Notes under the pieces: model-generated
Databases searched by the model: none
What the model saw: only the letters and a program-made list of their open reading frames with translations
What the model was told of the DNA's origin: nothing
Source of the DNA: Minisyncoccota bacterium
GTDB taxonomy: Bacteria; Patescibacteriota; Minisyncoccia; Phycocordibacterales; UBA9973
Assembly (NCBI GenBank): GCA_041674285.1
Contig: JBAYVZ010000004.1
Coordinates: forward strand, 21,913-85,912
Length of the DNA: 64,000 nucleotides
Direction of reading: 5' to 3'
Position numbers and translations under genes: made by a program
In this document: piece after piece, positions 2,556 to 61,761 of the stretch
Numbering within the stretch: the first letter of the stretch is position 1
Layout: every line of letters starts with the position of its first letter

Positions 2556-3290
2556 AATTTTTTTGTAATTGTATACACGTTTAGATTAATTTCGACTTAT
2601 CTTTCGATGCGACTAATAATAATGCATCGGAAGAAAAAATTAATGTGTGTGTATATATTTTTATAACAGTCTCTATCAACTGCTATTTTTACTATCAGAT
2701 AATTCCCCGAGAGAAACTATCTGATGAACGTAAACGAATTGAATGAATGCCCTGAACGAAAAGCTCAGGAACAAAACATATCTGCCTTGTCGACAGGGCC
2801 GATACCACATTCTGTCTCCTCCTCTGTCACCCGCCTCTATCTGCGGATAATCGTAACTCTATCTGATACGATACACCCAACCTCTATCAAGTCGGGCAAG
2901 AAAGAAAAACACAAAATGGACGACCATAAAAACAAGCGCGGTCTAATATAGTGAGGTAAAATACCCCACAAACGAAACTACAAAGCCGTGACAATATTCG
3001 GTATCAAATTGCACGGTATTTTGTTTTCAATGATCGCCCCTCATTAAAGTATGAGGGCTACTTACATACTAGCACATATTGGCCAAAAAAGCCAGTACTA
3101 GATGTACATCCATTATATAACACCCATAGATATATATGCAAGCAAAATCAAGCATATCTGTGGATAAATACTATAGCCTGTTCCCCTCTTGAGGGGTGGA
3201 CTCTGTACTCAGAGGACGGGGTGGATGAATCCGAATCAATACTTCCACCCCACCCCTACGTGGCACCCCTGCCGAGGGGAATTTTAACCC

Positions 3291-4163: not shown

Positions 4164-4347
4164 TGTCTTTTTTATAAAAAAATAATACTAGATACTGTCT
4201 TTTTGTGTGTCCATTATACACCTAAAATAGTTTCTAGCAACTAGACATGCAAGGCAAAAAAAGGTGGTCAGTATAGGTTATTTAAAGTACTAAAATCTAG
4301 CGCTCAAGCACTAGATTTATGATATAATTAGCATATAAATTTATGGT

Positions 4348-4468
4348 CCCGTTAGAAGTCATTTATGTCAGATCACGCACGGGAATAAATATTATTTTTT
4401 GAGTTATATTTTGATTTTATTATTTATAATTATGTACGATAATCTAAAGATTATCTACTTCTAACGGG
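4348..4468. repeat. Palindrome-bounded element, copy A: 12-bp perfect terminal inverted repeats CCCGTTAGAAGT / ACTTCTAACGGG enclosing a 97-bp AT-rich core with an internal 7-bp-stem/TAAA-loop hairpin; the 3' arm abuts the ftsK ATG
   Basis: 4348-4359 cccgttagaagt; 4457-4468 acttctaacggg; ATG of ftsK at 4469. Internal hairpin gataatc-taaa-gattatc at 4438-4455. Related copies at 22561-22677, 39291-39408 and 20736-20805; solo arm at 38027-38036. Confidence 0.7.
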
Positions 4469-17131: not shown

Positions 17132-18982
17132 TTATATAATATCACGGCCAGCACGCAGTGCATAGAGTATAACTACTATGTCGATACCCTCTTGTATTAG
17201 AGCCCCGTAAAGTGGCATCAAATTGCCAGACAATGCAACGAACATACAGAGAGTAGACAAACCTATCCCAATAAATATTCCTTCACGAGCTACTTTTACA
17301 GTACGAATAGCTACTTTATAGGCTTCAGGAACTTTTTCAATAGAACCAGAGACTATCACAATATCCGCACTTTCAGATGCCGCTGTTGCACCGTGAGAGC
17401 CTAGAGCTATGCCGGCATCTGACTGTGCGAGAGCTGGTGCATCATTTACCCCGTCACCAATCATCGCTACTTTCAATCCACTCTTTTGAAGATCCTTAAT
17501 CACGATCAATTTTTCGTCGGGTAGACATTCCGCCTTATATTCATTTATTTTCATTGATGCAGCCACGGTCGATGCTACACTTTCTTTGTCACCAGATAAC
17601 AGCATAAATCTCTTTATACCTAAAGTAGATAGATCAGAGAAAACTTTACGCGCTTCAGGTCGAACTTCATCCTTAAAAGAAATCATTCCTATCACACCAG
17701 CACCTCTCCCCAAGTACACAGGTATGACTCCCTCATTTCTTGTTTTTATATATTCTTTGTTTAATTCGTCTCCGGCAATTATTCCATTATTTACTAGGTA
17801 TGCTAGTTTTCCAAAATAATATTTTTCACCGTTTACGACACCGCTGACTCCATCTCCAAAAACTTCCTTAAAGTCATCGGGGTAAATTAATTTTTGAGAT
17901 TTAGAATGGGCGTATTCCACCAATGACCTAGCAAATATATGTACCGACAGTTGATCGAGAGATGCGGATATTTTCAGTATTTCATCTTTTGGTATATTGG
18001 TGAATGTTTTTATGTCGTGTATCTCGGGTATCCCCATCGTGATAGTGCCTGTTTTATCAAACACGCACATATCCACTCTTGATAATAATTCGAGAGCTCC
18101 CCCATTCTTGACTATAATACCTGCGCGAGACGCCCTACTCATACCTGACATAAATGCGATGGGTGTAGCGAGGATTAGTGGACAAGGAGTAGCCACCACC
18201 AGCACTGCCAGCATTCGTATTGGCCCACCAAAATAATATGCCAATGCTGCCATTATGATAGTAAAAATTGTAAAGTATACACTGTATTTATCCGCCATAC
18301 GTACAAATGGTGCCTTGTTCTCCTCAGCCTGGCGCACCATATTGATTATTGTATGTAGTCTGGATTCAGTCAGTTCTTTGGTCACACGGATTTCTAGAGC
18401 AGCGTCTGTATTTTTTGTACCAGCCAAAACGACACTCCCGACTTCTTTTTTATTGGGTACTGATTCCCCTGTCATTACAGATTCATCAACATAAGAAACT
18501 CCACTCTCCACGACGCCGTCAGACGAGATAACTTCACCTGCCTTTACAATAATATGATCATTTATTTTTATATCAGAACTGTCTACATCAATAACCCCGT
18601 TATCCTTTTTTACATGGGTCTTTTGTGGTATCAAATTTAATAGATCAGAGAGTGCACGTCTAGCGCGGTTCATAGCATATGACTCCAGTGCTTCTCCTCC
18701 AGACAGCATCAATAGGACTATCATACCAGGTAAATATTCACCAAAGACAAGTGATGTGGCTAGGGCAAGTCCTGCGACGAGATCTACTCCAAAATTACGA
18801 CGAAGGATATTTGAGATTATTTCATACCAAAGGGGTATAGAAAATACACACAAAACCACGAGCGATACCTGTTGCGCAAATAAGTCTATTTTAAAAACAT
18901 AAGAAATGAAAACGAGAACCAGTGCCCCTAATGCGACAAAAGGAGTCCATGCCCGAACTTTGGAAATAATGTTTAGTATCAT
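17132..18982 (-). CDS. P-type ATPase, P1B (heavy-metal) subtype, lacking an N-terminal metal-binding domain
   Basis: DKTGTIT phosphorylation motif; hinge MIGDGVNDAPALAQSDAGIALG; TM6 VVATPCPLILATP (CPx-like motif of P1B ATPases). 616 aa. Confidence 0.85.
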   Translation of the reverse strand: MILNIISKVRAWTPFVALGALVLVFISYVFKIDLFAQQVSLVVLCVFSIPLWYEIISNILRRNFGVDLVAGLALATSLVFGEYLPGMIVLLMLSGGEALESYAMNRARRALSDLLNLIPQKTHVKKDNGVIDVDSSDIKINDHIIVKAGEVISSDGVVESGVSYVDESVMTGESVPNKKEVGSVVLAGTKNTDAALEIRVTKELTESRLHTIINMVRQAEENKAPFVRMADKYSVYFTIFTIIMAALAYYFGGPIRMLAVLVVATPCPLILATPIAFMSGMSRASRAGIIVKNGGALELLSRVDMCVFDKTGTITMGIPEIHDIKTFTNIPKDEILKISASLDQLSVHIFARSLVEYAHSKSQKLIYPDDFKEVFGDGVSGVVNGEKYYFGKLAYLVNNGIIAGDELNKEYIKTRNEGVIPVYLGRGAGVIGMISFKDEVRPEARKVFSDLSTLGIKRFMLLSGDKESVASTVAASMKINEYKAECLPDEKLIVIKDLQKSGLKVAMIGDGVNDAPALAQSDAGIALGSHGATAASESADIVIVSGSIEKVPEAYKVAIRTVKVAREGIFIGIGLSTLCMFVALSGNLMPLYGALIQEGIDIVVILYALRAGRDII

Positions 18983-22557: not shown

Positions 22558-22560
22558 GAT

Positions 22561-22677
22561 CCCGTTAGAGATTTGTTTGTAATATTTCTAATTATTGGGA
22601 TAATTTAAATTATCGTCGCATTTTTTACTAGATATTAATTAGATACGGTAATGTAAACATTACCTATCTCTAACGGG
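22561..22677. repeat. Palindrome-bounded element, copy B (IR CCCGTTAGAGAT / ATCTCTAACGGG) filling the divergent recJ / HIT intergenic region; both start codons abut its ends
   Basis: 22561-22572 and 22666-22677. HIT ATG at 22678; recJ ATG (minus strand) at 22555-22557, 3 nt from the left arm. Internal hairpin ggtaatg-taaa-cattacc. Confidence 0.7.
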
Positions 22678-22992
22678 ATGAATGAAAATTGTATTTTTTG
22701 TAAGATTATAAGCAATGAAATCCCATCATCAAAAGTATATGAAGATGATAAATTCTTGGCTTTTTTAGACATCCATCCTGTTTCTAATGGGCACACCCTG
22801 TTAATACCCAAATCACATCATGAATGGATGGTTAATGCTCCAGATGAATTAATATCAGAAATATACAAAATGGCAAAAAAATTGATGATAGAGATCAAAG
22901 AGAAAAATAAATGTGAATATGTAAAACTATCTGTTATAGGTAAAGACGTGCCACACTTCCACATACACCTAATACCTGAATATAATAAATAA
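22678..22992 (+). CDS. HIT-family (histidine triad) nucleotide hydrolase
   Basis: CIFCKII...HPVSNGHTLLIPKSH...VPHFHIHLIP (HxHxHxx triad). Confidence 0.88.
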   Translation: MNENCIFCKIISNEIPSSKVYEDDKFLAFLDIHPVSNGHTLLIPKSHHEWMVNAPDELISEIYKMAKKLMIEIKEKNKCEYVKLSVIGKDVPHFHIHLIPEYNK

Positions 22993-31278: not shown

Positions 31279-31794
31279 TTATTTTAGTCGTCCGGGGTGA
31301 TAACCACCCTCCTCTTCATATTTTTCTTTTTTACTCTCTTCTTCTGGTGTTATAAACTTACCTTTTTCTTCCAGAGTTCTCTGCATCCACAATCTGTATA
31401 ATTCACTAGCATGCATAGTATCGGTAGATATAAACATTGGAACATCGTACGAATGCAATTCACCAAGGAAAACAGTTAATCGTTCTGATAAATCAGAAGT
31501 AGTAGTCAACATAAGCATATACTGATCTACATCTTCTAGTACTCCGTGCCATGGATACACCGACTCAACGGGCCACAAATCTCCACACACTGCCATATGA
31601 TTCTCTACTGCGGACCGGGCCAGATCACGCGCCTCGTCCCTATCTCTGCATGTAGTATACACAAACACGGCACCTTCTGAATCTTTATTTATTTTATCTA
31701 TAATCATTGATTCTGCGGAATCACATCGCGCAAGTCGATTTAGCGCGATGCTCTTCAAATTAATAATAATTAAATCACTTCCTGCTGATAACAC
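31279..31794 (-). CDS. cutA: CutA1-like divalent-cation tolerance protein (start probably at the internal MIIDKINKD Met)
   Basis: VFVYTTCRDRDEARDLARSAVENHMAVCGDLWPVESVYPWHGVLEDVDQYMLMLTTTSDLSERLTVFLGELHSYDVPMFI follows the CutA trimer-fold pattern (...SxYxWxG.IxE..E..L..KT...L...v...HpYe.P). The annotated 5' end overlaps the upstream Cys-rich gene by 25 nt. Confidence 0.55.
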   Translation of the reverse strand: MLSAGSDLIIINLKSIALNRLARCDSAESMIIDKINKDSEGAVFVYTTCRDRDEARDLARSAVENHMAVCGDLWPVESVYPWHGVLEDVDQYMLMLTTTSDLSERLTVFLGELHSYDVPMFISTDTMHASELYRLWMQRTLEEKGKFITPEEESKKEKYEEEGGYHPGRLK

Positions 31795-33482
31795 TTCTCA
31801 CAATAAATAACCTCTGGTCGGTCTGGAGCGTAGCTAGTCTGGAATTCATTATCACAACCTTCGTGCATACATTTTCTGTTCCAGAGCTTTAAAGGTGTTC
31901 TTTTTGAAAATCTTTCTTTGTGACGACACTGATAACACATCCTAGGTATCGGAATATTGAATCTTTTGTAAAAGGTTAATTCATCTCGAGTTAGACGAAA
32001 TGCCCCAGAGCAACGATCGGATCCAGGGAATGTATCGCAAGATATTATTTCTTGCAGAATATCGAGGGAGGTATCTATTATTGAATCAGGAATTTGCTCT
32101 GTTTTAATTGTGGGATTATGATTTTGATTATCTTTATCTCTATATAAATAACCATTGCTAATGGTATCCTCTTTAGATAAAGGATAGAAGTAATTAGCGA
32201 TAGTCTCATTATAGGCAAATGGTGAAAATTCTATTGGGAAAAATTCTCCATATTTATACACCCTACCCTTTTTATCAACATATGGCATATCAATCATATG
32301 CTTTTTAATTTTACCAACCATATCAAAATATTCTTCTTTTGAATATTGTTTATTTAAAATACAATATGATTTATTTCTAAGACCAATACACCCAAATAAA
32401 TCATGCGAATTATAACAATTAAAAGAATATTCTACATTACTTGAGTTATAAACAACATTTGAAAAATTACAATTTGTGCCCCCTACTCCGGAGTCACAAG
32501 ACTCAAAACTATTTTCTAGCAGTCCAATAGCATTACAATAATAACAATCAAAAATATTTTCAGCTGCCCAGTACAAATATTTAGTATTTTTAACATTACC
32601 AGAAGCATCAAATATATGCTGACTATCAACAACGCCACTGAGGTCATTCCCTGTAGCATTATGACAATTAATCAACGCAGCATATTTATGAATTGAATTT
32701 AATTTTAATTCTTCAAAATCTTTTTTTAGTTTCTGAATTGTATTATAACTACCCAGATCATATTGTTTTATTTTTTCAAAATACTCCTCTTTTGAATATT
32801 GAATATTATTAAAACAATAGCTCTTGTTGCGGAGATTAGACGACATAAAACAATTCACACAACCCTTACAGTCATATAGGAAATAAGAGTCAGTTGATGA
32901 ATTTGTTTTTTCACAATAAAAAATTTTGTAAGAATCTACACAGTAAATATCCTGATAACAAAACTCACTATTGTGAACAACATACAAATCAGAAGAATCT
33001 TTAACTTTTGTAATAGAATCAGAATACATCGTTCTTTCATTTTTCCAACAAGCAGAACATAGATAACAGTCATAATTTTCTTCTGCTACATTACAATAAT
33101 CACTATTAACAGATTTTGAATTTGATAGGGCCTGAAATGGAACAACATCACGCAGAGCACGCCATTGTGAGAAAAAATCAACAGAAAAATCAAAATCACG
33201 TCCATAGTCAAATGGATCCCATTGGTCACCCCACCAATATTTTTGATCTACAATATTCATCTTTACATCTGGGTGATATATAGAGATTAAATCTTTCCCC
33301 GTCACACTATCTGGACGCCTATATAGAGCGTGAGTATTACGCCAAGCAAAACGTCTTTGATGTGAACAATCCGGGCAAAATGTAGGTGGTGGGACTTTTA
33401 TCTTGTCATAAAACGCAAAATCCTCTGGCTCTATCGTGAAATCCTGCAGGCAGTTCTGACATTGACGTGCTTCTTTATTCAT
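31770..33482 (-). CDS. Cysteine-rich zinc-ribbon repeat protein, paralog 1 (uncharacterised family; 570 aa, ~40 Cys)
   Basis: N-terminal CQNC...FYDKIKVPPPTFCPDC; C-terminal CYQCRH...C...YAPDRPEVIYCEKCYQQEVI; internal duplicated block ...C.GC.NCFMSSNLRNKSYCFNNIQYSKEEYF... / ...GCIGLRNKSYCILNKQYSKEEYF...YVDKKGRVYKYGEFFP. No signal peptide or TM. Confidence 0.6.
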   Translation of the reverse strand: MNKEARQCQNCLQDFTIEPEDFAFYDKIKVPPPTFCPDCSHQRRFAWRNTHALYRRPDSVTGKDLISIYHPDVKMNIVDQKYWWGDQWDPFDYGRDFDFSVDFFSQWRALRDVVPFQALSNSKSVNSDYCNVAEENYDCYLCSACWKNERTMYSDSITKVKDSSDLYVVHNSEFCYQDIYCVDSYKIFYCEKTNSSTDSYFLYDCKGCVNCFMSSNLRNKSYCFNNIQYSKEEYFEKIKQYDLGSYNTIQKLKKDFEELKLNSIHKYAALINCHNATGNDLSGVVDSQHIFDASGNVKNTKYLYWAAENIFDCYYCNAIGLLENSFESCDSGVGGTNCNFSNVVYNSSNVEYSFNCYNSHDLFGCIGLRNKSYCILNKQYSKEEYFDMVGKIKKHMIDMPYVDKKGRVYKYGEFFPIEFSPFAYNETIANYFYPLSKEDTISNGYLYRDKDNQNHNPTIKTEQIPDSIIDTSLDILQEIISCDTFPGSDRCSGAFRLTRDELTFYKRFNIPIPRMCYQCRHKERFSKRTPLKLWNRKCMHEGCDNEFQTSYAPDRPEVIYCEKCYQQEVI

Positions 33483-35335: not shown

Positions 35336-35923
35336 TTATTGAGGTAGAGTAAACTTTATCTGTTCGGCCAAGAATTCAAGAGGAATCTCTCCTACTGCCA
35401 TAGCACTGCTATCAAAATTCCAAACATCACCATTTTGAACTGGATCTTTTTCTGACTTTATTGAGAATTTATAATTTGAAAATACCCAAACTTTTGCGTA
35501 CTCTGAATGTATATTTGCACAGACAGCAGGCTCCCCCTCAATCTTTGCCCCAGTAGGACTAGGAGCACAAGCAAGAGGCTTTGGGTCGGAAGATTTCAAT
35601 GTTATACCATTCTTGAATGTCCAAGATGGGTAACTCTCTACTTTATTAGCCTTGCACTCATTCGTCTGACCTCGTGAATCAGGGGTAGAACATTCTACAT
35701 AAGGTATATACTTTTTAGAGCTACCAAAAAGAGCTTTTGTAGCCTGACAATGCGGACACCAAAATGCCCCATAGAATACTGCACCCTCAGATTTGAGAGC
35801 TTGTGCAAAAGCGTCATACTTTCCAGGTTTTGCAGTTTTTTCAACAATAAAACCAACACCCATAATCAATATAATAATAGCAACAACAGACACGATGAAT
35901 ATATTTTGTTTTGTTTTAAACAT
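35336..35923 (-). CDS. Membrane-anchored thioredoxin-fold thiol-disulfide oxidoreductase (DsbA-like; motif type usually fused to VKOR)
   Basis: FYGAFWCPHCQATKALFG matches the Trx domain partnered with bacterial VKOR (YGAYWCPHCQ). N-terminal TM. Overlaps DsbB by 1 nt, so probably co-transcribed. Confidence 0.7.
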   Translation of the reverse strand: MFKTKQNIFIVSVVAIIILIMGVGFIVEKTAKPGKYDAFAQALKSEGAVFYGAFWCPHCQATKALFGSSKKYIPYVECSTPDSRGQTNECKANKVESYPSWTFKNGITLKSSDPKPLACAPSPTGAKIEGEPAVCANIHSEYAKVWVFSNYKFSIKSEKDPVQNGDVWNFDSSAMAVGEIPLEFLAEQIKFTLPQ

Positions 35924-38768: not shown

Positions 38769-39290
38769 TTATACTCGGACAACTTCTGGAATAACAACGA
38801 CTGCAGTACTTTCCTTTTCTACCCATCTTTCAATCATTGGTGATAGAACTATAGCAAAGGATACATTTGAAAGCAAATGAATAGCCGTGAATGGTATCTG
38901 ACCTACTATTGCCGCCATGAATGATTGCCCAAAGAATAGTGGACCCATAGTCAAACCAGTAACAACATCAAATACGATAGTACTTACAAATGCGAATTTA
39001 GCATAGTTCTTCCATCCTGTACGATTCTGGAAATAGAAAGATGCAGCAAGACCAACTAATCCATAGGCAATACCTGCAAATAGTGTCCACACACCAAATC
39101 CTACTGTAAACATGTCGTACACAGCCACAGACAAGAAACCAAATAAAAATGAATACAATCTACCGTATGTACGAGACAACGGCATAACCATAGCCATCAG
39201 AGGCTCCAGATTTGGAGCCCTAAATGGTAGCAGTCGAACCAGTAGTCCAACTACAAACAGAGATATAATTTTGATTGGGTTTTTCTTCAT
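38769..39290 (-). CDS. Small polytopic membrane protein, ECF-transporter S-component-like (candidate cobalamin-specific CbrT-type)
   Basis: 173 aa, 5-6 TM, no soluble domains. Adjacent to DUF4430 and the toroid protein, which is a common ECF S-component context. Assignment by context and topology only. Confidence 0.4.
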   Translation of the reverse strand: MKKNPIKIISLFVVGLLVRLLPFRAPNLEPLMAMVMPLSRTYGRLYSFLFGFLSVAVYDMFTVGFGVWTLFAGIAYGLVGLAASFYFQNRTGWKNYAKFAFVSTIVFDVVTGLTMGPLFFGQSFMAAIVGQIPFTAIHLLSNVSFAIVLSPMIERWVEKESTAVVVIPEVVRV

Positions 39291-39408
39291 CCCGTTAGAA
39301 GTAGATACTCTTTAGAGTATCGTACATAATTTAACTAATAAACTCGAATATAACTAATTTATTCAAATAAAATCCGTAGCTAGAATAACATGCATGACTT
39401 CTAACGGG
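39291..39408. repeat. Palindrome-bounded element, copy C (IR CCCGTTAGAAGT / ACTTCTAACGGG) between nrdJ and the ECF-S-like gene; the left arm abuts that gene's ATG
   Basis: 39291-39302 and 39397-39408. Read on the minus strand it ends ...gatactc-taaa-gagtatc-t-acttctaacggg-ATG. Apart from compensatory stem changes it is nearly identical to the 3' end of copy A. Confidence 0.7.
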
Positions 39409-39426
39409 ATCATAAGTTTTTTTATC

Positions 39427-42564: not shown

Positions 42565-44277
42565 CTAGAGTACTTCTTGTTGATAACATTTCTCACAATA
42601 TACCCTCTCTGGTCGATCTGGGGCATAGGTTGTTTGAAAAGTGGTTCCGCAGTTGTTTGAACATTCGCGATTATACAAACTGAGAGGGTTTCTGTATCTT
42701 AGTCTTTCTTCGTGTCGACAATTTGGGCATAATCTAGGAATGGGTAAATTATTCTTCTTGCAAAATTCTAGTTCTTCTTTTTTTATTCTAAAAGCATATG
42801 TACATTGATTACTAAAACCTTCAACTTTACTACACAAAATAACATCATCTAATATTGAGTCATTTATTTCGGAGATACAATCAGGTAGAGTGTCCTTGTC
42901 CTGATTAGTCTTGTAGTCTCTAATGTCTCTTTCATACCAGTTATAACCCATATCAAGAGCAGTATCTTTCGAAATAGGATACATATCATTGGCAAGAGAC
43001 TCATTGTAGCCAAATAATGAAAATCCAGTAGGAAAAAACTCTCCGTACTTATAAACCCTACCCTGTTTATCTACATAAGGAATATATATCATATGTTTTT
43101 TTATTTTACCTACAGCATCAAAATATGCATCTTTTGAATATTGCTTGTTTAATATACAATATCTTGCATTCGTAAGACCAACACAACCAATACAATCAGT
43201 ACAATTTTTACATGAGATAGAATACTGTATATCTCTTGAGCTTACACACATAAAACAAGAAACTTGGTTGAAGGACCCCCCGCTGCCAGTCATTGTCTCG
43301 TACTCGAGCTCCCCAGCCAAAACCCATCCGCAATCCATTAGATCTTTTGATTTTACAATACGATAAGAATAACTAATATCTTCAGCCTCCATTATATCGA
43401 ATGATTTTTTTACATTCTTTGATCTTGTGATTATATCCCCAGAAACATCGACAGAAGCGATTACATTTGCAAAGCGATGGGTAGCAGAACTTATTAAGCC
43501 TTTAAATTCATCTTTTAAAATAACCAAGGTTTTAAAAGAACCTCTCTCTAAATCCTGGATGGCTTTTTCGTAGTCAGATTTTGATAATTTTACATTCCTA
43601 AAGACATAAGATTCATTTCTTAACCCTGAAGACATAAAACAATTCGAGCAGTTAGAACAATCAAAAAGAAATGAAGAGTCCATACAATTCTTGGATTCAA
43701 ACATATAGTGACAATTATAATTTTTCTCTGAATTTATATTCCAAGAGCACTGCTGTATATCTATACAAGACAAACAATCAAAACAATCTTTTGATCTATC
43801 TACATTTTCGGAATAAAAAATATTTTCTGATTCAATAGATGAAAAAGATAGGTATAAATTTTTAGAATTTACTATTGAGTTAGAATAGTCACTATCCAAG
43901 TTTGTCCCATATCGAATAGAAAAAACTCTCGGTTGAACATTCAAAATATTTTTAAGCTGAGTAAAAAAATCTTTAGAAAAATCAACATCTGCTGAAAATT
44001 TATACATATCCCAGTTGTCGCCAGAATAACAACTCTCACAGTAAACAGGAGCGCCATCATCCTTATAAAAAGAAATTAAATTTTTTTTACAAACACCACA
44101 AGAGCGAGAATGAAGAGATCTATTGTTTCTCCATGAGAGTCTTCGGATATTTCTACACTCCGGGCAGAATGTCGGTGGTGGGACTTTGATCTTGTCATAG
44201 AACACAAAATCCTCTGGATCAATAGTGAAATCCCCTTTGCAATTCTGACACATTCTTTTTTCTGTTTGATATTCCAT
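42565..44277 (-). CDS. Cysteine-rich zinc-ribbon repeat protein, paralog 2 (tandem with paralog 3; start taken at MEYQTEKRMCQNC)
   Basis: Same architecture as 31770-33482: CQNCKGDFTIDPEDFVFYDKIKVPPPTFCPEC ... YVDKQGRVYKYGEFFP ... CPNCRHEER...YAPDRPERVYCEKCYQQEVL. The ORF-track start at 44355 would overlap paralog 3; the internal Met at 44277 removes the overlap. Confidence 0.6.
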   Translation of the reverse strand: MEYQTEKRMCQNCKGDFTIDPEDFVFYDKIKVPPPTFCPECRNIRRLSWRNNRSLHSRSCGVCKKNLISFYKDDGAPVYCESCYSGDNWDMYKFSADVDFSKDFFTQLKNILNVQPRVFSIRYGTNLDSDYSNSIVNSKNLYLSFSSIESENIFYSENVDRSKDCFDCLSCIDIQQCSWNINSEKNYNCHYMFESKNCMDSSFLFDCSNCSNCFMSSGLRNESYVFRNVKLSKSDYEKAIQDLERGSFKTLVILKDEFKGLISSATHRFANVIASVDVSGDIITRSKNVKKSFDIMEAEDISYSYRIVKSKDLMDCGWVLAGELEYETMTGSGGSFNQVSCFMCVSSRDIQYSISCKNCTDCIGCVGLTNARYCILNKQYSKDAYFDAVGKIKKHMIYIPYVDKQGRVYKYGEFFPTGFSLFGYNESLANDMYPISKDTALDMGYNWYERDIRDYKTNQDKDTLPDCISEINDSILDDVILCSKVEGFSNQCTYAFRIKKEELEFCKKNNLPIPRLCPNCRHEERLRYRNPLSLYNRECSNNCGTTFQTTYAPDRPERVYCEKCYQQEVL

Positions 44278-44281
44278 ATTT

Positions 44282-46036
44282 TTACAATACTTCTTTTTGA
44301 TAACACTTCTCGCAATATACTTTTTCAGGTCTGTCTGGGGAGTAGCTAGTCTCAAACTCTACATCACACTGCACTACGTGATCATGATTATCCAGATCAC
44401 ACATGCACTGACGGTGCCAGAGCTTCATTGGATTACGTTTTGACAATCTGTCCGCATGACGACAGCTATAGCAAACTCGAGGCAGTGGAATAACGAGCCT
44501 CTTGTAGAAAGAAACTTCTACTTCATTCATTTTATAAGCTTTTGTGCAAGTTACATACTTATCATTGTTTATATTTTTACATTCTACAATCTCACCCAGG
44601 ATAGAATCATTTACATCAATGATTGAATCAGGCAGTTCAGAGGACTTCACAGTAATATTGTATTGTTTATTTACTTTTGGTATATATTGAAAATTTTTCT
44701 GAACTAAATCATTTTCATTCAAAGGGAAAAAGTCCCCTGCAACAGTATCATTATAAGCATAAGGAGCAATCTCTATAGGAAAAAATTCTCCATATTTATA
44801 GATATTCCCCATGCTGTCACTGTAAGGGATTTCATTCATCTGTTTTTTTATTCTGCCTAGCAACTCAAAATATTCATCTTTTTCATACTGCTTGTTGAAT
44901 ATACAATAATTTTTATTTTTCAAACTCACACAACCAAAACAATTATTGCAAGAATAGCAATTAAATGAATACTCTACATTCGTAGAATTCCAAACAACTA
45001 CACTAAATTTTACATTACTATTAGCTACACCGATACTAATACCCTCATAAGTAAGTTCTGACTTTCCACCTGCACCAGGGCCGACATCGTATGAATCCTT
45101 CAATCCAAAAGTCCCCCAGTTACAATATTTGATATTCTCGACACCCCTTGGCAGATCAAAAGAATAATATGCATCTTTTGCATTTTGCATATTATCCCCC
45201 ACCACATTTACACAGTTGGTAAGCTGGGCGTATTTCCTAATGGCATTTTTCTTTAATAACTCAAATGATGCCTTATGATTTTGAATTGATGCATAACTAC
45301 TCAAATTAAATTCTTTAATTTTTTCTTTATATTCATCTTTTGAGTATTGAATATTGTTTATGCAATAAGATTTATTTCTCAAACTATTACACATAAAACA
45401 ATCAGTACAATTCCTACAGTCAAAAAGAAAATATGAATTTACACAGTTATATGAGTTCTCGCTATAAAACAATCGAGACGAATCCCCACAATAAATATCC
45501 TCGTACGAGAAATCTAGCTTGTGGCTGATATATGAATCTACTGTATTCTGACAAAATGATATCCTGTTTGAATACATAGAATCTTCACATGTCCAAACAG
45601 CAGAAAGCATATAATTATTTTTACTCTCAGTAATATAATTACAAAATTGATTATTTACACCCTTGCTATCAAAAAAAGAAATCAGGGGTGTTCTATATAA
45701 AAGATCTTTATACTGAGAAAAGAAATCTCGAGATAAATCATATTCGCAACCAAAAGATATAGCATCCCAACTATCACTCCACCAATAAGTATTGTCGTAA
45801 GAGGAAACAGGAATACTCTCAGGGTAAGTAGAGATCATTTTTTCTTCGGAGCCAGGCTTGTCATTCTTTCGAAAGTACAGACCTCTCTCATTTCTCCAAG
45901 CTAGACGTCTCTGCATTCTACACTCCGGACAGAATGTCGGTGGTGGGACTTTGATCTTGTCATAGAACACAAAATCCTCGGGCTCTACTACGAACTCCCC
46001 TTTGCAATTCACGCACGCTCTCGTTTCTGGGCTCAT
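44282..46036 (-). CDS. Cysteine-rich zinc-ribbon repeat protein, paralog 3
   Basis: CVNCKGEFVVEPEDFVFYDKIKVPPPTFCPECR ... LRNKSYCINNIQYSKDEY ... NKNYCIFNKQYEKDEYF...YSDSMGNIYKYGEFFP ... CYSCRHADR...YSPDRPEKVYCEKCYQKEVL. A 50-nt stretch at its 5' end is identical to paralog 2 at the DNA level. Confidence 0.6.
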   Translation of the reverse strand: MSPETRACVNCKGEFVVEPEDFVFYDKIKVPPPTFCPECRMQRRLAWRNERGLYFRKNDKPGSEEKMISTYPESIPVSSYDNTYWWSDSWDAISFGCEYDLSRDFFSQYKDLLYRTPLISFFDSKGVNNQFCNYITESKNNYMLSAVWTCEDSMYSNRISFCQNTVDSYISHKLDFSYEDIYCGDSSRLFYSENSYNCVNSYFLFDCRNCTDCFMCNSLRNKSYCINNIQYSKDEYKEKIKEFNLSSYASIQNHKASFELLKKNAIRKYAQLTNCVNVVGDNMQNAKDAYYSFDLPRGVENIKYCNWGTFGLKDSYDVGPGAGGKSELTYEGISIGVANSNVKFSVVVWNSTNVEYSFNCYSCNNCFGCVSLKNKNYCIFNKQYEKDEYFELLGRIKKQMNEIPYSDSMGNIYKYGEFFPIEIAPYAYNDTVAGDFFPLNENDLVQKNFQYIPKVNKQYNITVKSSELPDSIIDVNDSILGEIVECKNINNDKYVTCTKAYKMNEVEVSFYKRLVIPLPRVCYSCRHADRLSKRNPMKLWHRQCMCDLDNHDHVVQCDVEFETSYSPDRPEKVYCEKCYQKEVL

Positions 46037-46077
46037 AAATATAAGTATACATTTCCAGATGATTTACACAATACATA

Positions 46078-46106
46078 ACAAAAAACCACCCAATGGGTGG
46101 TTTTTG
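46078..46106. terminator. Terminator hairpin aaaaaaccacccaatgggtggttttt (shared core with the 529-556 and 57486-57514 terminators)
   Basis: CCACCC-AAT-GGGTGG stem with flanking A/T runs. Confidence 0.55.
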
Positions 46107-46198
46107 TTTAGAATTATTTTCTTGATTCGATGATAGTTGTAGCCATCCCAAAGGAAAGAGTACTTCCTACGGGACAGGCATTCTGAGGTGTGAGTATA

Positions 46199-48342
46199 TT
46201 ACTTACGTGACTCAATAATTGTCGTTGCTACGTTTTGAGGCACTATGTCGTAACGTAGGAATTCCATAGTGAATCCTGCGCGACCTTCTGTCATAGAACG
46301 TAGAGTTGTCATGTAACCGAACATTTCAGATAGTGGAACAACAGCTTTCACTGCTTGGTTCATACCACGTTGTTCCATACCTTCGATCAATCCACGCTTT
46401 GAAGATAGACTTCCTGTCACATCTCCCATGAATTTATCTGGAGTCACAACTTCGACATTCATCATAGGTTCTAGGATCACTGGGCGAGCCATCTTACATG
46501 CATCTTGGATTGCCATAGAGGCTGCGATCTTGAAGGCCATTTCGTTTGAGTCCACATCGTGGTAACTTCCATCCCATAGCTCGACAGATACGTTTCCCAA
46601 TTTGAATCCTGCAAGAACTCCACGATCAAGACCTTCTTTAAATCCTTTTTCACAAGCTGGAATGTATTCTTGTGGAATAGCACCTCCCTTGATTGTGTTC
46701 ACGAATTCAAATCCCTTTTCACGCTTTGTATTTCTTGGTAGATCTTCAATTGCGATACTCTGATCCATTGGCTTTACCTTGATCTTTACGTGACCGTAGT
46801 TTCCACGTCCTCCTGATTGCTTGATGTACTTGCCTTCTACATCTGCTGTACCTGTGATTGTCTCACGGTATGCAACCTGTGGCTTACCTACATTTGTCTC
46901 AACAGCGAATTCACGCTTCATACGATCTACGATAATTTCCAAGTGGAGCTCTCCCATACCTGCGATGATTGTCTCATTTGTCTCTTGGTCTGTAGCTACG
47001 CGGAATGTTGGATCCTCTTGAGCAAGACGATTCAGTGCCATACCCATTTTCTCTTGGTCGGCTTTTGTCTTTGGCTCTACACGTAGAGAGATAACTGGCT
47101 CTGGGAATATGATACGGATCAATTCTGCTGGAGCATTTTCATCACAAAGAGTATCTGAAGTGATAGTGTCTTTTAGTCCTACTGCAGCTGCGATTTCTCC
47201 AGCGTATACCTTCTTTACTTCTTCACGGTCATTGGCATGCATACGTAGGATACGTCCGATACGCTCTTTGTTTCTTGTACGAGGATTGTATACATATGAA
47301 CCTGCAGTTACAGATCCAGAGTAGACACGGAAGAATATAATCTGTCCTACGAATGGGTCAGTAGCGATTTTGAATGCTAGAGCTGAGAATGGTTCAGCAT
47401 CTGAAGCCTTACGTACTAGTGGCTCATCTGTATTTGGATCAATACCTGTGATTGGAGGAATGTCTGTAGGAGCTGGTAGGTAGTCGACAACTGCGTCTAG
47501 CACTAGTTGAACTCCTTTGTTCTTAGAGCTGATCCAGCAAATACTGGGAATACATCGTTGGCGATAACAGCCTTACGCATTAGCTTCTTTAGAGTATCGT
47601 AGTCTGGAACTTTTCCTTCGAAGTAGTCACTCATGATCTGATCATCTTGCTCAACTATTTTTTCTACTAGTTCTGCGTGATACTTTTCTGCTTCTGCCTT
47701 GTACTCTTCTGGGATTTCTTTTTCGATAACTTTGTTACCCATCTCCCCTTCAAAGTAGAAAGCCTTCATCTTCAATAGGTCGATCACACCTTCGTGCTTT
47801 TCTTCAAGACCGATTGGGATTTGCATACGGATAGCTTTTTTAGTAAGTCTATCTAGGATTGTTTTATATGAGTGCTCAAAAGATGCGCCTGTACGGTCAA
47901 GCTTGTTTACGAAACAAATACGTGGCACATTCGCCTCGTCAGCATAGCGCCAGTTTGTCTCTGACTGTGGCTCTACTCCAGCCACTCCATCGAATACAAC
48001 TACTGCACCATCGAGTACACGAAGTGAGCGCTTTACTTCTACAGTAAAGTCGATGTGTCCTGGTGTGTCGATAATGTTAAAGCGGTGCTTCTTTGTCTTG
48101 TCTGTCAGTGCGTATGTCGGTGTCCAGAAACAAGTAACAGCAGCAGATGTGATAGTGATACCACGCTCGCGCTCTTGTTCCATCCAGTCTGTAGTTGTCT
48201 CACCATAGTGCACTTCACCTATCTTGTGTGATACACCAGTGTAAAACAATACACGCTCTGTTGTTGTAGTCTTACCCGCGTCGATGTGGGCAATAATACC
48301 TATATTTCTAACTTTCTCTAAAGGATAATCTCTTTGGTCCAT
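46199..48342 (-). pseudogene. fusA: Elongation factor G, interrupted by a single-nucleotide deletion at ~47505-47520. The ORF track splits it into 47503-48342 (G domain) and 46199-47503 (domains II-V, GTG start)
   Basis: The upstream fragment ends ...[16 protein letters not shown]. Reading the same DNA in the -1 frame gives [20 protein letters not shown], the canonical continuation of EF-G. The actual sequence gctctaagaacaaagg is one A short of the expected gctctaaagaacaaagg (GSALKNKG). Confidence 0.8.
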
Positions 48343-48459
48343 ATATATAATTCTTATTAATAAAATAAAAAACCCCGTAAGGCATTTGTCCCTAGAATAT
48401 ACAACAAATAGGCTAATTTTGCAACAAAAAAGGTAGTCTGATTTAGACTACCTTTTTTA

Positions 48460-48678
48460 CTATTTTATACACTTTACTCGTGAGCGTTTTACACAAACAT
48501 TCTTACTAAGAGACACTGTTGTGTTTCCACGACTATCTGGTTTAAGTAAATTATTTACAGCTCGAGTATTTAAAATGAGCTTTCCGTCTTTTTTTACTTC
48601 CAAGACTTTTACGTGGATTAAACCACAAATACATAGATATTCAACGATATCTCCTGCTTTAATAATTTCTTTTTCCAT
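48460..48678 (-). CDS. Small hypothetical protein (72 aa) inserted between rpsG and fusA
   Basis: ORF with start and stop, basic C-terminus, 4 Cys (LCICG...CVKRSRVKC); no recognised family. Position within the str operon is atypical. Confidence 0.3.
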   Translation of the reverse strand: MEKEIIKAGDIVEYLCICGLIHVKVLEVKKDGKLILNTRAVNNLLKPDSRGNTTVSLSKNVCVKRSRVKCIK

Positions 48679-48784
48679 AATTTCAATATTTATTTGTTTT
48701 TCTCCAGATTACTACATTCCCACTTTTTGTCAATAAATAACAAAACTCCCCAAGTGGGGAGTTTTGTGTTTGAGTCTATTTTGA

Positions 48785-49255
48785 TTACCAAGCAAAGTGA
48801 GCGAACGCTTTGTTTGATTCTGCCATCTTGTGAGTATCATCACGCTTCTTGATAGCGATACCTTCGTTCTTTGAAGCAAGGATTATCTCTTCAGCTAGCT
48901 TTTCTGCCATTGCTGCACCTTTCTTTCCACGAGCTGCTGTGATTATCCATCTCATAGCTAGTGATGTGCGGCGGTCTGGGCGTACTTCACGAGGAACCTG
49001 GTAGTTTGCACCACCGATACGACGTGAGCGAACCTCTACTAGAGGACCTGCATTTTTGATTGCAGTATCGAAAACTTCTAGAGGATTTGGATTACCAGTC
49101 TTTTCTTTGATGATATCAAAGGCACCGTATACAATCTTTCTTGAAGTCTCCTTCTTTCCGTCCCACATAACATTGTTTATGAACTTTCCAAGCTTTTGTG
49201 AGTTATAAACGATATCTGGTTCAACAATATTTCGATTTTTTACTTTTCTTCGCAT
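48785..49255 (-). CDS. rpsG: 30S ribosomal protein S7
   Basis: [19 protein letters not shown]...[28 protein letters not shown] is canonical S7. Confidence 0.92.
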
Positions 49256-49260
49256 AAATT

Positions 49261-49686
49261 TTATTTCTTAGCTCCAGCCTTTGGACGCTTGTTACCATAC
49301 TTACTTCTTGCTTTTCGACGTTTCTCAACTCCAGTAGCATCGAGACGTCCACGAACTATGTGGTAACGTACTCCGATCAAGTCTTTTACACGACCACCAC
49401 GTAGCATAACTACAGAGTGTTCTTGTAGGTTGTGACCTTCACCTGGGATATAAGCTGTAACTTCCATACCATTTGTAAGACGTACACGAGCAATCTTTCG
49501 GAGAGCTGAGTTAGGCTTTTTAGGAGTAGTTGTTGTAACTTTTGTACAAACACCACGCTTGAATGGTGCTGGGTAATAAACTGGCTTGTTTTTAAGCGCA
49601 TTAAAACCGCGAGCGAGAGCTACGGCCTTTGATTTTCTTTTTATTATTGTACGGCTCTTGCGAACCAATTGATTCATTGTAGGCAT
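49261..49686 (-). CDS. rpsL: 30S ribosomal protein S12 (start at MPTMNQL; the track ORF carries a spurious 21-aa extension)
   Basis: [12 protein letters not shown]...[59 protein letters not shown] is canonical S12. Confidence 0.92.
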
Positions 49687-49766
49687 ATATTTAAAATAGG
49701 TCGTAAAGACCAGTAGGAACACTTTACTATATAGCCGTAAAAAAAGCAAGCCTGCTTTCTAATGCT

Positions 49767-51506
49767 CTATTCTCCAAGCAACAATCTAGCCAACCGCAAT
49801 TCATCATATGAATATTTTCCATCAAAATGCTCAAATACTGCAGACAGTGATCGGGTGTCGAGCTTGTGAAAAGCCTTGTGTATAGCAGGAAGAGATTTTT
49901 CTGTATTTTTATCTAGGATTCTAGATAGCTCCCCTATTGGAATCTTTTCATCTTCCACTAATTCTTCTATGTGAGTAAAAATTGTACTTTCTTTTAATTT
50001 ACGGAGCTTTGCAATCTCTACTATATCGCGCCCTTCATTCCACATATCTAGAGTCAATTCTTTTGTATCTACTTTTGATCCTTTTTTATCTTTTACTTTT
50101 TTCTGAAAATCCGGGCTGGGGTTTACTACTCCGCCGGATGCACGGATAAAATTGTCATGCATTTTTTGTAATTCATTTTTAGGTAATTTTGAAAATTCTA
50201 TTTCTGCAGCACTTGATTGCTCTTTGAAAATCTGATCTTGGGAGAATATCTGTGGGTGAACTTCAAATGCTCGCCTATTCCATCCGAGTAAATGCAACCC
50301 TGAAAGACGTCGCACACGCGAGAGTGCCACGTACCCCTGACCATATTCAAATACATCAGAAAGGTCCATCACAGCTTCATCCAGACTCATACCCTGACTC
50401 TTGTGCACAGTGATAGCCCACGCCAGGCGTAGTGGGATCTGAGATATACTTGCTCTCACCTTTCCATTCTCCTCGAGGGCCCACTCTGCAGGTTCAACTG
50501 TAAACTTCTTTCCCTTACGATCTTCAACTATTGGGTACCGAGTGCCCGGGGCAAATCCGACGATAGTACCGAGGGTGCCATTCACATATCCCTCCTTTTG
50601 ATTATTCTTTGTGCACATCACCTCCGCACCGAGCTTCAGCACCAGAGTGTCTGGAGACAGACATCCCTTTTTCAATGTCTCGACAATGATATCTCGCCCT
50701 GTACCTACCATACGATAGAATTCTTTTTCTTCTTTTATTTTCTCTAGCATCGCATTGTTCACGCTATCCACATCGACATTGCGAGAAAAAAGTTTGAGCA
50801 TTTTTGCAGATGTCTTGCCCACCTCTACCTTACGAGCTTCGAGGTGCTCGAACATATCTTCATCAAAAGTATTGGACCGGATAGAAGATAGTATAGATAA
50901 AAATGTATCATCATCTTGGCGATACTGCTCGGATAGGTAGCAAGTGATAGGTTGAGCTCTGGCCCAAGATTCAGATTCATATGCAAATATTCCTAGTGGC
51001 TTTGCCTCAAATAGTGCGTCCTGATTGTAGTCATCCTCTGGAACTTTTGTATTTAAAATATCTCTCTTTGTGATCGGTGGTAATTGGAAAAAATCTCCGA
51101 CAAATATAACCTGCAGTCCGCCAAAGGCCTCAGTACTCCTGCGTACTTCCCTACATACTGCATCCACCATATCGATAGTATTGGGTCCGAGCATGGACAC
51201 CTCATCTATCACGAGAACTTTTGCTTTTGTTACACGACGAGTGACATATTCACTAGTCGATATTTTATCTAGATCGTATTTAGTCAGAGATTTACGAATA
51301 CCGATACCACTCCATGAGTGGATAGTCATCCCGCCGATATGAGTAGCCGCAATACCTGTGGATGCAGTGATAGCCACCTCTACACCACGACTACGCAAAT
51401 AAGACACATACTCATTTATCGTATGTGTCTTGCCGGCACCAGGCTCCCCTGTCAGAAAAACATTGGCCCCAGTCTTTAGTATTTGCAGTGCCTCGTCTTG
51501 GATCAT
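49767..51506 (-). CDS. PIF1/RecD-family ATP-dependent DNA helicase with C-terminal helix-turn-helix domain
   Basis: Walker A FLTGEPGAGKTHT; Walker B VLVIDEVSML; SF1 motif GDFFQLPP; ...VHKSQGMSLD (motif V/VI region); C-terminal HTH-like ~80 aa. Confidence 0.72.
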   Translation of the reverse strand: MIQDEALQILKTGANVFLTGEPGAGKTHTINEYVSYLRSRGVEVAITASTGIAATHIGGMTIHSWSGIGIRKSLTKYDLDKISTSEYVTRRVTKAKVLVIDEVSMLGPNTIDMVDAVCREVRRSTEAFGGLQVIFVGDFFQLPPITKRDILNTKVPEDDYNQDALFEAKPLGIFAYESESWARAQPITCYLSEQYRQDDDTFLSILSSIRSNTFDEDMFEHLEARKVEVGKTSAKMLKLFSRNVDVDSVNNAMLEKIKEEKEFYRMVGTGRDIIVETLKKGCLSPDTLVLKLGAEVMCTKNNQKEGYVNGTLGTIVGFAPGTRYPIVEDRKGKKFTVEPAEWALEENGKVRASISQIPLRLAWAITVHKSQGMSLDEAVMDLSDVFEYGQGYVALSRVRRLSGLHLLGWNRRAFEVHPQIFSQDQIFKEQSSAAEIEFSKLPKNELQKMHDNFIRASGGVVNPSPDFQKKVKDKKGSKVDTKELTLDMWNEGRDIVEIAKLRKLKESTIFTHIEELVEDEKIPIGELSRILDKNTEKSLPAIHKAFHKLDTRSLSAVFEHFDGKYSYDELRLARLLLGE

Positions 51507-57961: not shown

Positions 57962-58756
57962 CTATTTTAATTGATGATTATTGATAACTTTTACGAAATC
58001 CGTAGGCAGTGGAGCCTCGACTTCTATTTCTTGCCCTGAGAGGAGTATGAATTTGATAGATTTTGCATGTAGGGCCAGTCTGTCAAAACCTAGAGATTTT
58101 TCTTTCTTACCTCTGTATATAGGATCTGAGATAATCGGGTGGTTTATATATCGTAGGTGCACACGGAGCTGATGGGTGCGGCCAGTTTTTGGGTAAAGCT
58201 CCAGATAAGAGAATTGGTGACTGTTGTCTTTGATCTCCACCTCATCTTGTGTATCTGTAAATCTAGACAGGACTACATACCCAGTCTTTGCTTCACGTAT
58301 AGGATCCCGGGCACCACGCCCTGCAGTCCACATACGTACATCTCCGGGAGATCTCCCTATTGGGGCATTGATTACGCCCATCTTGCCATTCAAAAGTGAG
58401 GCATTGGGATCTGCTACATATCCATAAACAAAAGCTCGGTAAACTTTCTCAATAGTATGATTCTTGAATTGATCTTTCAAGAACAAAAAGGATTCCTGGT
58501 TCTTTGCCAAGATGATCACTCCTGAAGTTTCGCGATCGAGACGGTGTACTATACCCGGACGCATGATTGCACGTCTCTCCCCACCTTTTGCATCTACCAT
58601 CAATGGCTCCCCTACATCTTTTGATTCTGGGTATTGTTTTATAAACCAATCAGCCAGTGTCTCATCCTTGTTCTTTCCATCGTTGTGCACAGAAATACCA
58701 GACGGTTTGTCTACCACCACCAAATCATTATCTTCATATAGAATAGTTACTTTCAC
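57962..58756 (-). CDS. RluA-family pseudouridine synthase (probable GTG start at 58756; the ORF-track N-terminus is antisense to tRNA-Val and is not real)
   Basis: VVVDKPSGISVH and catalytic HRLDRETSGVIILAKN (RluA motif with catalytic Asp). The first 30 residues of the track ORF are the reverse-complement reading of the tRNA-Val gene. Confidence 0.8.
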   Translation of the reverse strand: MKVTILYEDNDLVVVDKPSGISVHNDGKNKDETLADWFIKQYPESKDVGEPLMVDAKGGERRAIMRPGIVHRLDRETSGVIILAKNQESFLFLKDQFKNHTIEKVYRAFVYGYVADPNASLLNGKMGVINAPIGRSPGDVRMWTAGRGARDPIREAKTGYVVLSRFTDTQDEVEIKDNSHQFSYLELYPKTGRTHQLRVHLRYINHPIISDPIYRGKKEKSLGFDRLALHAKSIKFILLSGQEIEVEAPLPTDFVKVINNHQLK

Positions 58757-58758
58757 GG

Positions 58759-58831
58759 TGCGCGATGAGGGACTTGAACCCCCGACCTTCCCGGTGTAAA
58801 CGGGTTGCTCTACCAACTGAGCTAATCGCGC
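58759..58831 (-). tRNA. tRNA-Val (anticodon TAC)
   Basis: GCGCGATTAGCTCAGTTGGTAGAGCAACCCGTTTACACCGGGAAGGTCGGGGGTTCAAGTCCCTCATCGCGCA: D-arm GCTC/GAGC; anticodon loop TTTACAC; T-arm CGGGG-TTCAAGT-CCCTC. Confidence 0.8.
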
Positions 58832-58925
58832 ATAAAAACTTGAAAACAATTTAATAGATAAACAATAACCTATTTCAAGACTTTTTTCAAGTCCTCCTTG
58901 CGAGAAAGTTAATTTTAAGGTATTT

Positions 58926-60149: not shown

Positions 60150-60689
60150 TTATTTCAGAATTAATACCATGTTAAAATCTATATCCTGTGGTTTAATAAA
60201 ATTAGAAATAGGCAAATCTACAGAAGAAAAAGTTTGATCGGCAGAGAGTGCGTCTTTAAAAGTCCTAAGTGCAGTTCTATCACTAGCAATACCCACTATA
60301 TTAACAGTCGCTTTTTTTAACCCAGCGATATTATAAGATATCTGACTGAATACTACCCCCTGAGTCCGGAGGGATAATATTTTCTCTAAAACATATTCAG
60401 AAATATACGAATCATTTTTCTTTGAAATTATAAAAGACAATTTTTCGTTTGTTTTTAAAATTTCATTGTTTAATTTATCTATATCAATCTGTGGATTTTG
60501 AGCATTAAAAATTTCTAGATTTGACTGAGCTATCCCCTCTCTGAGGACTGAGTATTTGTATGATGGAGAGATAAACAACGCAGCAACTACGGCAAGAATT
60601 GATATCATAAAAAAAGAAACAATTAAAAGTCGGAATAGATATTCCTGTCTTAATTTATCTTTATCTTTTTTGGGTAATAGATTAATCAT
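60150..60689 (-). CDS. pilN: Type IV pilus assembly protein PilN
   Basis: N-terminal INLLP motif (MINLLPKK), a hallmark of PilN, then a single TM and periplasmic domain. Confidence 0.7.
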   Translation of the reverse strand: MINLLPKKDKDKLRQEYLFRLLIVSFFMISILAVVAALFISPSYKYSVLREGIAQSNLEIFNAQNPQIDIDKLNNEILKTNEKLSFIISKKNDSYISEYVLEKILSLRTQGVVFSQISYNIAGLKKATVNIVGIASDRTALRTFKDALSADQTFSSVDLPISNFIKPQDIDFNMVLILK

Positions 60690-61761
60690 ATAAATAATCT
60701 CCTAATGCCAGACCAAGCACGGTAACATAAGACAAAGATTCTTTTGCTGACATATACGGAACTGATTCATCCATGTTTGATATATTGGTCCAAGCATTTG
60801 CATACTCTACACGGGTTTTAAAACTGACAGAGAGGTACGAAGATAGGCCTGGTATATTTGACCCACCTCCACATAGAATAATCTTGGATATTGGATTTCT
60901 ACTTTTACCACTTTCTGATTTATGAGTAGCCCAATAAACAAAATGCTTATTTATCTCATCGCGAAGTACGGCCACCACGTTTAGAACTGCGGGAAAAATA
61001 TCTTCACCGCTCTCTATCCCCAACTCCCCAAAGGCATATTTTTTCTTCTCGGCATCTTCGATAGAAATATTGTAGTGCTTTGCTATCATCTCCGTAAAAG
61101 TATCTCCCCCGATATCAAAAGTAGAAGTAAATACAATCTTTCTGTTCACTGCTATAGATATCCCTGTGCGAGTCTCTCCAAAATCTATAATCATAGTAGT
61201 GCCGATATCTTCCATTGAGATAACAGCTTCAGCTATAGACTGAGCCTCCAGTTCAAAAGATATAGGTATGAGCCCCGCGCGATTAAAAACAAATAGATAA
61301 TCTTCGACAACCTCAGAAGAAATGGCTACCACCTCCACTGTCACATGGGTATCGGTCTCAGACAAAACCTCATAATCAAAAAGAGTGGATTTTGCAGAAA
61401 GAGGAATATGGTCTTCGAGTTGCAACAAGATTGTATCTCTGAGGCCAGTCTCTTCTATCTTTACAACAGACAAGGTAAAAAGATATATTTGTTCCTCGGG
61501 CAGAGCCACTCGGACAAATTCCATATTTTCTTTTTCTTTTAATCTGCTCAAGATTACGATAAGCTCTTCGGGATCCTCTATCCTACCTGATTTTATTATC
61601 CCGCTATCGATTTTTTCCCTGCCATACTTCCCTAGCCTCAATCCAGAAGGAGACATCTTTAATTCACCGTATTTGATAGAGTGATCAGATATGTCCATAG
61701 AATAAGAAAACATACCGAGTAGTTTGGGTGTAGGAAAATGCTTGCTGTATAATTGCTTCAT
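60682..61761 (-). CDS. pilM: Type IV pilus assembly protein PilM (actin-like ATPase fold)
   Basis: ~350 aa, FtsA/actin-like two-domain pattern (GIDIGTTMIIDFGETRTGISIA...ILCGGGSNIPGL); precedes pilN with an 8-nt overlap. Confidence 0.78.
   Translation of the reverse strand: MKQLYSKHFPTPKLLGMFSYSMDISDHSIKYGELKMSPSGLRLGKYGREKIDSGIIKSGRIEDPEELIVILSRLKEKENMEFVRVALPEEQIYLFTLSVVKIEETGLRDTILLQLEDHIPLSAKSTLFDYEVLSETDTHVTVEVVAISSEVVEDYLFVFNRAGLIPISFELEAQSIAEAVISMEDIGTTMIIDFGETRTGISIAVNRKIVFTSTFDIGGDTFTEMIAKHYNISIEDAEKKKYAFGELGIESGEDIFPAVLNVVAVLRDEINKHFVYWATHKSESGKSRNPISKIILCGGGSNIPGLSSYLSVSFKTRVEYANAWTNISNMDESVPYMSAKESLSYVTVLGLALGDYLYD

Follow-up and report, generated by a model that had tools for sequence, protein, structure and literature searches.

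A split fusA gene in a Patescibacteria contig: probable consensus error in the deposited sequence

Elongation factor G (EF-G), the product of fusA, is essential, and the genomes of Patescibacteria are small. In the analyzed stretch of 64,000 nucleotides (herein referred to as the window), fusA is distributed between two open reading frames (ORFs) that lie in different frames. This raises the question of whether the organism carries a broken gene, makes EF-G by recoding or from two fragments, or has an ordinary gene that was damaged only in the deposited sequence. The split was observed correctly and is, in biological terms, ordinary.

The fusA locus and its surroundings

Both fusA ORFs are located on the minus strand (Table 1). 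The first one contains codons 1-274 of EF-G in frame, followed by five out-of-frame codons, found within the string RTKEFN, and a TAG stop (47505-47503). The second one (434 aa), as called mechanically, begins at a GTG (47503-47501) that overlaps this stop by one base. The EF-G homology extends upstream of the GTG, to the junction, and is read in the -1 frame with respect to the 5' part. With the repaired EF-G as a query, tblastn matched the 5' part to residues 1-276 at 99% identity and returned a second HSP, 47554..46202, in the other frame. The Pfam domains GTP_EFTU in the 279-aa ORF and GTP_EFTU_D2/EF-G_D2, EFG_III, EFG_IV, and EFG_C in the 434-aa ORF are all full-length profile matches. 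Thus, the five-domain EF-G architecture (G, II, III, IV, V) is present across the two ORFs.

Table 1. Features of the fusA locus and positions at which the window differs from the ENA assembly ERZ27247358
Feature	Position	Strand	Evidence or remark
Terminator-like hairpin with a following T run, 3' of the fusA stop	46081..46105	-	Sub-threshold Rfam leader/terminator-like matches at the same place
fusA 3' part, end of the G domain and domains II, III, IV, V	46199..47522	-	Frame translation; Pfam; tblastn
434-aa ORF, mechanical call	46199..47503	-	ORF list
fusA 5' part, EF-G G domain (279 aa)	47503..48342	-	ORF list; Pfam GTP_EFTU, E=6.6e-58; tblastn
Lesion site, AA run (TT on the plus strand), AAA expected (CTA-AAG, Leu-Lys)	47523..47524	-	Alignments with L001/L002 and L093/L095
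Private substitution GAA>GGA, EF-G E583G	46596	-	Relatives V, E, T, I, K, S or L, never G
Private substitution GAT>TAT, EF-G D46Y	48207	-	D or E in 84/88 relative matches, never Y
72-aa ORF between rpsG and fusA	48460..48678		
rpsG, upstream of fusA	48785..49255	-	Pfam Ribosomal_S7
rpsL, upstream of fusA	49261..49749	-	Pfam Ribosom_S12_S23
All window substitutions versus ENA ERZ27247358	4025, 15204, 19374, 27973, 31576, 43191, 46596, 48207, 52107, 53512		

The minus-strand sequence at the junction is GCTCTAAGAACAAAGG. Addition of one A to GCTCTAAGAAC yields a protein of 714 aa, and the top database match of this repaired protein, 96% identical, is annotated as "elongation factor G [Candidatus Nomurabacteria bacterium]". 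A chance arrangement of ORFs is ruled out by this result. A single reading frame of about 700 aa is therefore absent from the window and is obtained on inserting one A. The affected codons, CTA-AAG, belong to the G5-box motif GSALKNKGVQ. The G domain is cut immediately behind the G5 box (GSAL), and its last helix would lie on the second polypeptide.

These results bear out the first-pass annotation, which had described the two ORFs as a fusA split by a single-base deletion; the sequence is one A short relative both to related genomes and to an independent assembly of the same strain. The annotation had also proposed that reading the junction in the -1 frame restores the conserved EF-G sequence, and frame translation confirmed it. 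The range that it had suggested for inspection of read pile-ups, 47500-47520, is a few bases too low, because the missing base belongs to the run at 47523-47524.

The genomic context of the locus is the usual str-operon one (rpsL-rpsG-fusA), with the addition of the 72-aa ORF. In the window and in the closest relatives, tuf does not follow fusA. A tblastn search with the repaired EF-G found no second fusA, as had been noted earlier, and no other translational GTPase within the 64-kb window.

The organism belongs to the Patescibacteria (Nomurabacteria/Paceibacterota) and is represented by a metagenome-assembled genome (MAG); in NCBI, the window proteins are filed under a Candidatus Paceibacterota MAG with the locus-tag prefix WC089. 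On either side of fusA are WC089_02660 (MFA7192177.1) and WC089_02670 (MFA7192178.1), and WC089_02665, which lies between them in number, has no protein accession. This suggests that fusA was already labelled a frameshifted pseudogene in the annotation by the depositor. Exact look-ups of both fragment proteins found neither on record, which is consistent with the deposited record treating the locus as a pseudogene.

Several features elsewhere in the window were recorded as well. Three paralogous genes on the minus strand (31770..33482, 42565..44355, and 44282..46036) encode Cys-rich proteins of 570-596 aa with CxxC pairs at both ends; no Pfam match was found for any of them. The latter two genes have common 96-nt stretches with 92% identity. 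Each of the intergenic regions 4346-4470, 22559-22679, and 39289-39410 contains an inverted pair of 11-mers, ATCCCGTTAGA and TCTAACGGGAT, about 100 nt apart, and in most cases one copy directly abuts an ATG start codon. The sequence TCTAACGGG occurs 6 times versus 0.26 expected. These pairs may represent a shared operator, leader, or small palindromic element. A TATAAT-like box is located a few bases before the start codon in several genes, for example 17132..18982, 35336..35923, 49767..51506, and 60682..61761. Judged from such sequence features, the window genes are suggested to be translated mostly by Shine-Dalgarno-independent, possibly leaderless, initiation. Finally, a gene for tRNA-Val (TAC; 58757..58831, minus strand) lies inside the 5' end of the ORF 57962..58849, which encodes a 295-aa pseudouridine synthase, so the TTG start of this ORF is placed too far upstream.

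Relatives and an independent assembly of the same strain

The junction was analyzed in 82 related loci collected from GTDB genomes and public assemblies, with a single tblastn HSP over residues 265-295 taken as evidence of an unbroken frame. The junction is crossed in one frame in all 82 loci, none being shifted, and the frame break is thus not conserved. The motif G[ST]ALKN[KR]G[VI] was found in frame in 65 of them, with varied codon choice. Each of the 82 loci has one fusA. In the closest other species (L001/L002, 91.7% nucleotide identity), the junction reads GCTCTAAAGAAT, and besides the missing A the only other fusA indel relative to the window is one whole codon at the N-terminus. The best match in a scan of GTDB genomes with fusA was 90% identical. 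The best 120 database homologues of the repaired EF-G are all 707-733 aa long; those with a name given by the source are all elongation factors, nearly all of them "elongation factor G".

When the 279-aa fragment was used as the query, every match was either a partial protein at a contig end or a fusA gene with its frameshift elsewhere, and none of them ends in RTKEFN. The exact junction of the window, with or without the extra base, had no matches in the metagenome scan. Matches of 2.6-3.1 kb (L009, L010, L011, L022, L027, and others) were considered as candidates for inteins or introns in fusA and rejected, since they represent fusA joined to the G domain of tuf located 150-900 nt downstream.

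Measured against L001, fusA has a dN/dS ratio of 0.071 as a whole, with 0.091 for the part before the shift and 0.056 for the part after it. Such values indicate strong purifying selection on both halves of the gene until essentially now. Decay of a pseudogene is expected to leave several lesions and a dN/dS approaching 1; here, one frame-breaking lesion and a dN/dS of 0.07 were found, but two private nonsynonymous changes occur at conserved positions.

An assembly of the same strain, ENA ERZ27247358, was reached through exact-protein look-ups of neighbouring genes. All 64,000 bases of the window are covered by two of its contigs, k141_1827620 (55.6 kb) and k141_1702343 (258 kb). The latter contig (L093) bears fusA in the same gene order, with rpsL and rpsG upstream, and is 99.96-99.97% identical to the window (99.96% over 13.7 kb). 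Its junction region, GCTCTAAAGAACAAAGGA, is part of an intact gene encoding a 714-aa EF-G. The string that the first-pass annotation had predicted for the repaired gene, GCTCTAAAGAACAAAGG, is found there verbatim. The ENA EF-G is 99.7% identical to the repaired window EF-G; two of the 714 residues differ, namely D46 (Y in the window) and E583 (G in the window).

Away from contig ends, 10 substitutions and exactly one indel were found between the window and the ENA contigs. This single indel over 64 kb is the missing A of fusA. In a tblastn search with 4,550 ORFs from related loci, no other frame breaks were found in the window, and no truncated Pfam domains were found among its about 60 ORFs. 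Apart from the lesion, then, the window is clean, and its assembly is not one with indels throughout. The short-read ENA assembly, for its part, breaks inside the Cys-rich gene 31770..33482, at about 32,330-32,367, and the contig of the window spans this break. Additionally, Logan contigs of SRR6484325 cover 20 kb of the window, all outside fusA; they have the ENA allele at all three of the differing sites that they span and no differences of their own.

The 10 substitutions comprise 2 transitions and 8 transversions, and 9 of them are nonsynonymous. In natural divergence between the window and four related species, 59% of the changes are transitions. Under this natural spectrum, two or fewer transitions in 10 have a probability of 0.014, and a random spectrum is favoured by a likelihood ratio of about 16. 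At the five sites that could be aligned with relatives, the ENA residue was found among the relatives in every case, and the window residue was absent at four. The exception is site 19374, where L, the window residue, was found in 5 relatives and W, the ENA residue, in 3. On this comparison of sequences, the private differences of the window look like unselected errors, not natural polymorphisms, and the missing A would most simply be one more of these random-looking changes. They suggest a consensus error rate of roughly 1 per 6 kb in the deposited MAG. A homopolymer-boundary signature pointing to a particular sequencing platform was sought and rejected, as it was seen at 3 of the 9 private substitutions examined, no more than by chance.

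Broken fusA genes were also found in other Patescibacteria assemblies. Frameshift-truncated EF-G proteins with breaks at other positions are represented by P0156, P0157, P0210, P0211, P0213, and P0221. The source of P0210 is a 501-kb contig (L105; JGI 3300049821, Ga0509788_07292), where, at locus coordinates 1867-4653, the gene calls divide rpsG into two parts and fusA into three. A degenerate scan of JGI metagenomes for the same kind of deletion (KNK codons) gave one match, in a high-GC contig riddled with indels. Broken fusA is thus a recurrent artefact at scattered positions. According to Antonov et al. (2013, PMC3711429), most singleton frameshifts in genes that have clear homologues stem from sequencing errors.

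Explanations for the split

The split of fusA is probably a consensus or assembly error in the deposited sequence, as judged from the sequence comparisons. One A of the AAA run in CTA-AAG would have been dropped during sequencing, assembly, or polishing, not in the cell; in the organism, fusA is most likely a single ordinary gene that is intact and encodes an EF-G of 714 aa. This reading is favoured by the intact allele at 99.97% identity and by the error-like spectrum of the other private differences, as well as by the 82 of 82 unshifted relatives, the lack of decay, and the essentiality of fusA with no second copy in the window. Of the three options listed in the first-pass annotation, an assembly or sequencing indel is hence the one preferred. 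Some observations pull the other way. As a homopolymer, a run of three bases offers little occasion for an indel error. It may also be that the ENA and Logan contigs derive from a sample other than that of the window, and the difference could then be real strain variation. A dN/dS near 1 is also shown by very recent real polymorphisms.

A real, very recent defective fusA allele, carried by the population that was sampled and either accompanied by a second copy elsewhere or not, is considered unlikely, though it is the least improbable of the alternatives. The deletion would then be a loss-of-function mutation in the sampled lineage or belong to a sub-population haplotype picked by the assembler; cells with this allele would be non-viable or declining beside cells with the intact one, or dependent on a second fusA elsewhere. 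The distribution of the differences speaks for such an allele. The fusA gene makes up 3.3% of the window and holds 3 of the 11 window-ENA differences, all protein-altering: D46Y, the frameshift, and E583G cluster within 1.6 kb of fusA, and, given the frameshift, 2 of the other 10 differences were seen in the gene where 0.34 were expected (P about 0.045). This mild clustering leaves some room for a real damaged haplotype. The lack of any other indel in the window fits a careful assembly, and the absence of a protein accession for WC089_02665 suggests that the deposited record marks the locus as a pseudogene. On the other hand, EF-G is essential, no second copy is present in the window, and one fusA was found at each of the 82 loci; an intact version exists at 99.97% identity; and the transversion-rich, nonsynonymous private differences fit errors better than mutations. 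With a dN/dS of 0.07 and no further lesion, there has been practically no time for the gene to exist as a pseudogene. For the earlier suggestion of a pseudogene compensated by another copy, no support was found, given this ratio and the single frame-breaking lesion.

Programmed frameshifting and a functional split EF-G are, even when taken jointly, very improbable. In the former, ribosomes would slip by -1 near CUA-AGA, or RNA polymerase would add an A, so that full-length EF-G is produced; the chance of this appears minute. A -1 shift between the ORFs does restore a perfect EF-G, and there is, in principle, precedent for "corrective" frameshifting at indels (Atkins et al., 2016, PMC5009743). 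No slippery heptamer of the form X XXY YYZ was found at the junction (A GCU CUA AGA ACA AAG), as the first-pass annotation had already remarked, and, as read from the sequence, a -1 slip would leave both the P-site and the A-site tRNA unable to re-pair. Transcriptional slippage needs a long A/T run of about 7 or more, and the A run at the junction, AA in the window and AAA in relatives, is far below this length. No stimulatory RNA structure was predicted in the 116 nt that begin 12 nt upstream of the site and span the junction, mostly on its downstream side: the folding energy was -20.5 kcal/mol versus a shuffle mean of -20.7 (z = 0.06). In the region 45500-49500, no Rfam family reached the threshold and no frameshift element was found. 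The only Shine-Dalgarno-like string near the site, AAGGAG, lies past the shift site instead of ahead of it. None of the 82 relatives has the shift, nor does the other assembly of the same strain, and an essential, highly expressed gene could not rest on inefficient, unassisted slippage. No description of recoding in fusA was found in the literature, nor any mention of SRR6484325, ERZ27247358, or WC089. The recoding option of the earlier annotation therefore fails every test that was run (heptamer, fold, Rfam, and conservation).

In a functional split, the G domain (279 aa) would end at UAG, translation would re-initiate at the overlapping GUG (UAGUG) to produce domains II-V (434 aa), and the two fragments would assemble. 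This is no more credible than programmed frameshifting, even with a stop and a start that share one base and AAGGAG 8 nt upstream of the GTG. The string AAGGAG is not meaningful here, because it consists of the codons AAA-GGA-G of the conserved K-G-V, which are also found in intact relatives, and because a Shine-Dalgarno-like core lies 3-20 nt upstream in only 4 of 45 window genes, so that the organism hardly uses one. Moreover, a cut after the G5 box would strip the last helix from the G domain and leave RTKEFN in its place; no relative is split here, and the intact allele exists in the same strain. It is just as hard to credit that the AA allele is real and lived with, EF-G being supplied by low-level, non-canonical corrective frameshifting or by two fragments assembling on the ribosome.

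If the split is an error, as preferred here, it matters for data quality only. The deposited MAG would carry a false fusA pseudogene, which would lower its completeness and marker-gene scores and could mislead surveys of pseudogenes and gene loss in Patescibacteria. A real and tolerated deletion would be remarkable, with an essential translocase made by recoding or as a split protein, and nothing found supports that. Were two fragments to be used, the organism, a Patescibacterium with a reduced genome, would possess a natural split form of an essential translational GTPase.

Comparison with known systems

The locus shares with other bacterial fusA genes of the str operon the five-domain architecture of the product and the position downstream of rpsL and rpsG. 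Unlike the usual str-operon fusA, its frame is broken once, the product has the changes D46Y and E583G, a 72-aa ORF is interposed, and tuf does not follow.

In dnaX of Escherichia coli, programmed -1 frameshifting takes place at A AAA AAG, flanked by a Shine-Dalgarno sequence upstream and a hairpin downstream. The likeness of fusA to dnaX is limited to the direction (-1) needed to restore the protein; the fusA junction lacks the slippery heptamer, the stimulatory structure, and the upstream Shine-Dalgarno sequence, and its frame break is not conserved.

The lesion is unlike those of heavily indel-ridden assemblies (L083 and L105) in that its run is short (AAA to AA) and it is the sole indel in 64 kb. 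It resembles the consensus indels known to fragment genes (Antonov et al., 2013, PMC3711429; Kastor, PMC12007338), being a single-base change of homopolymer length in a gene with clear full-length homologues. As in those cases, no relative shares the fusA lesion, and the separately made assembly of the same strain lacks it.
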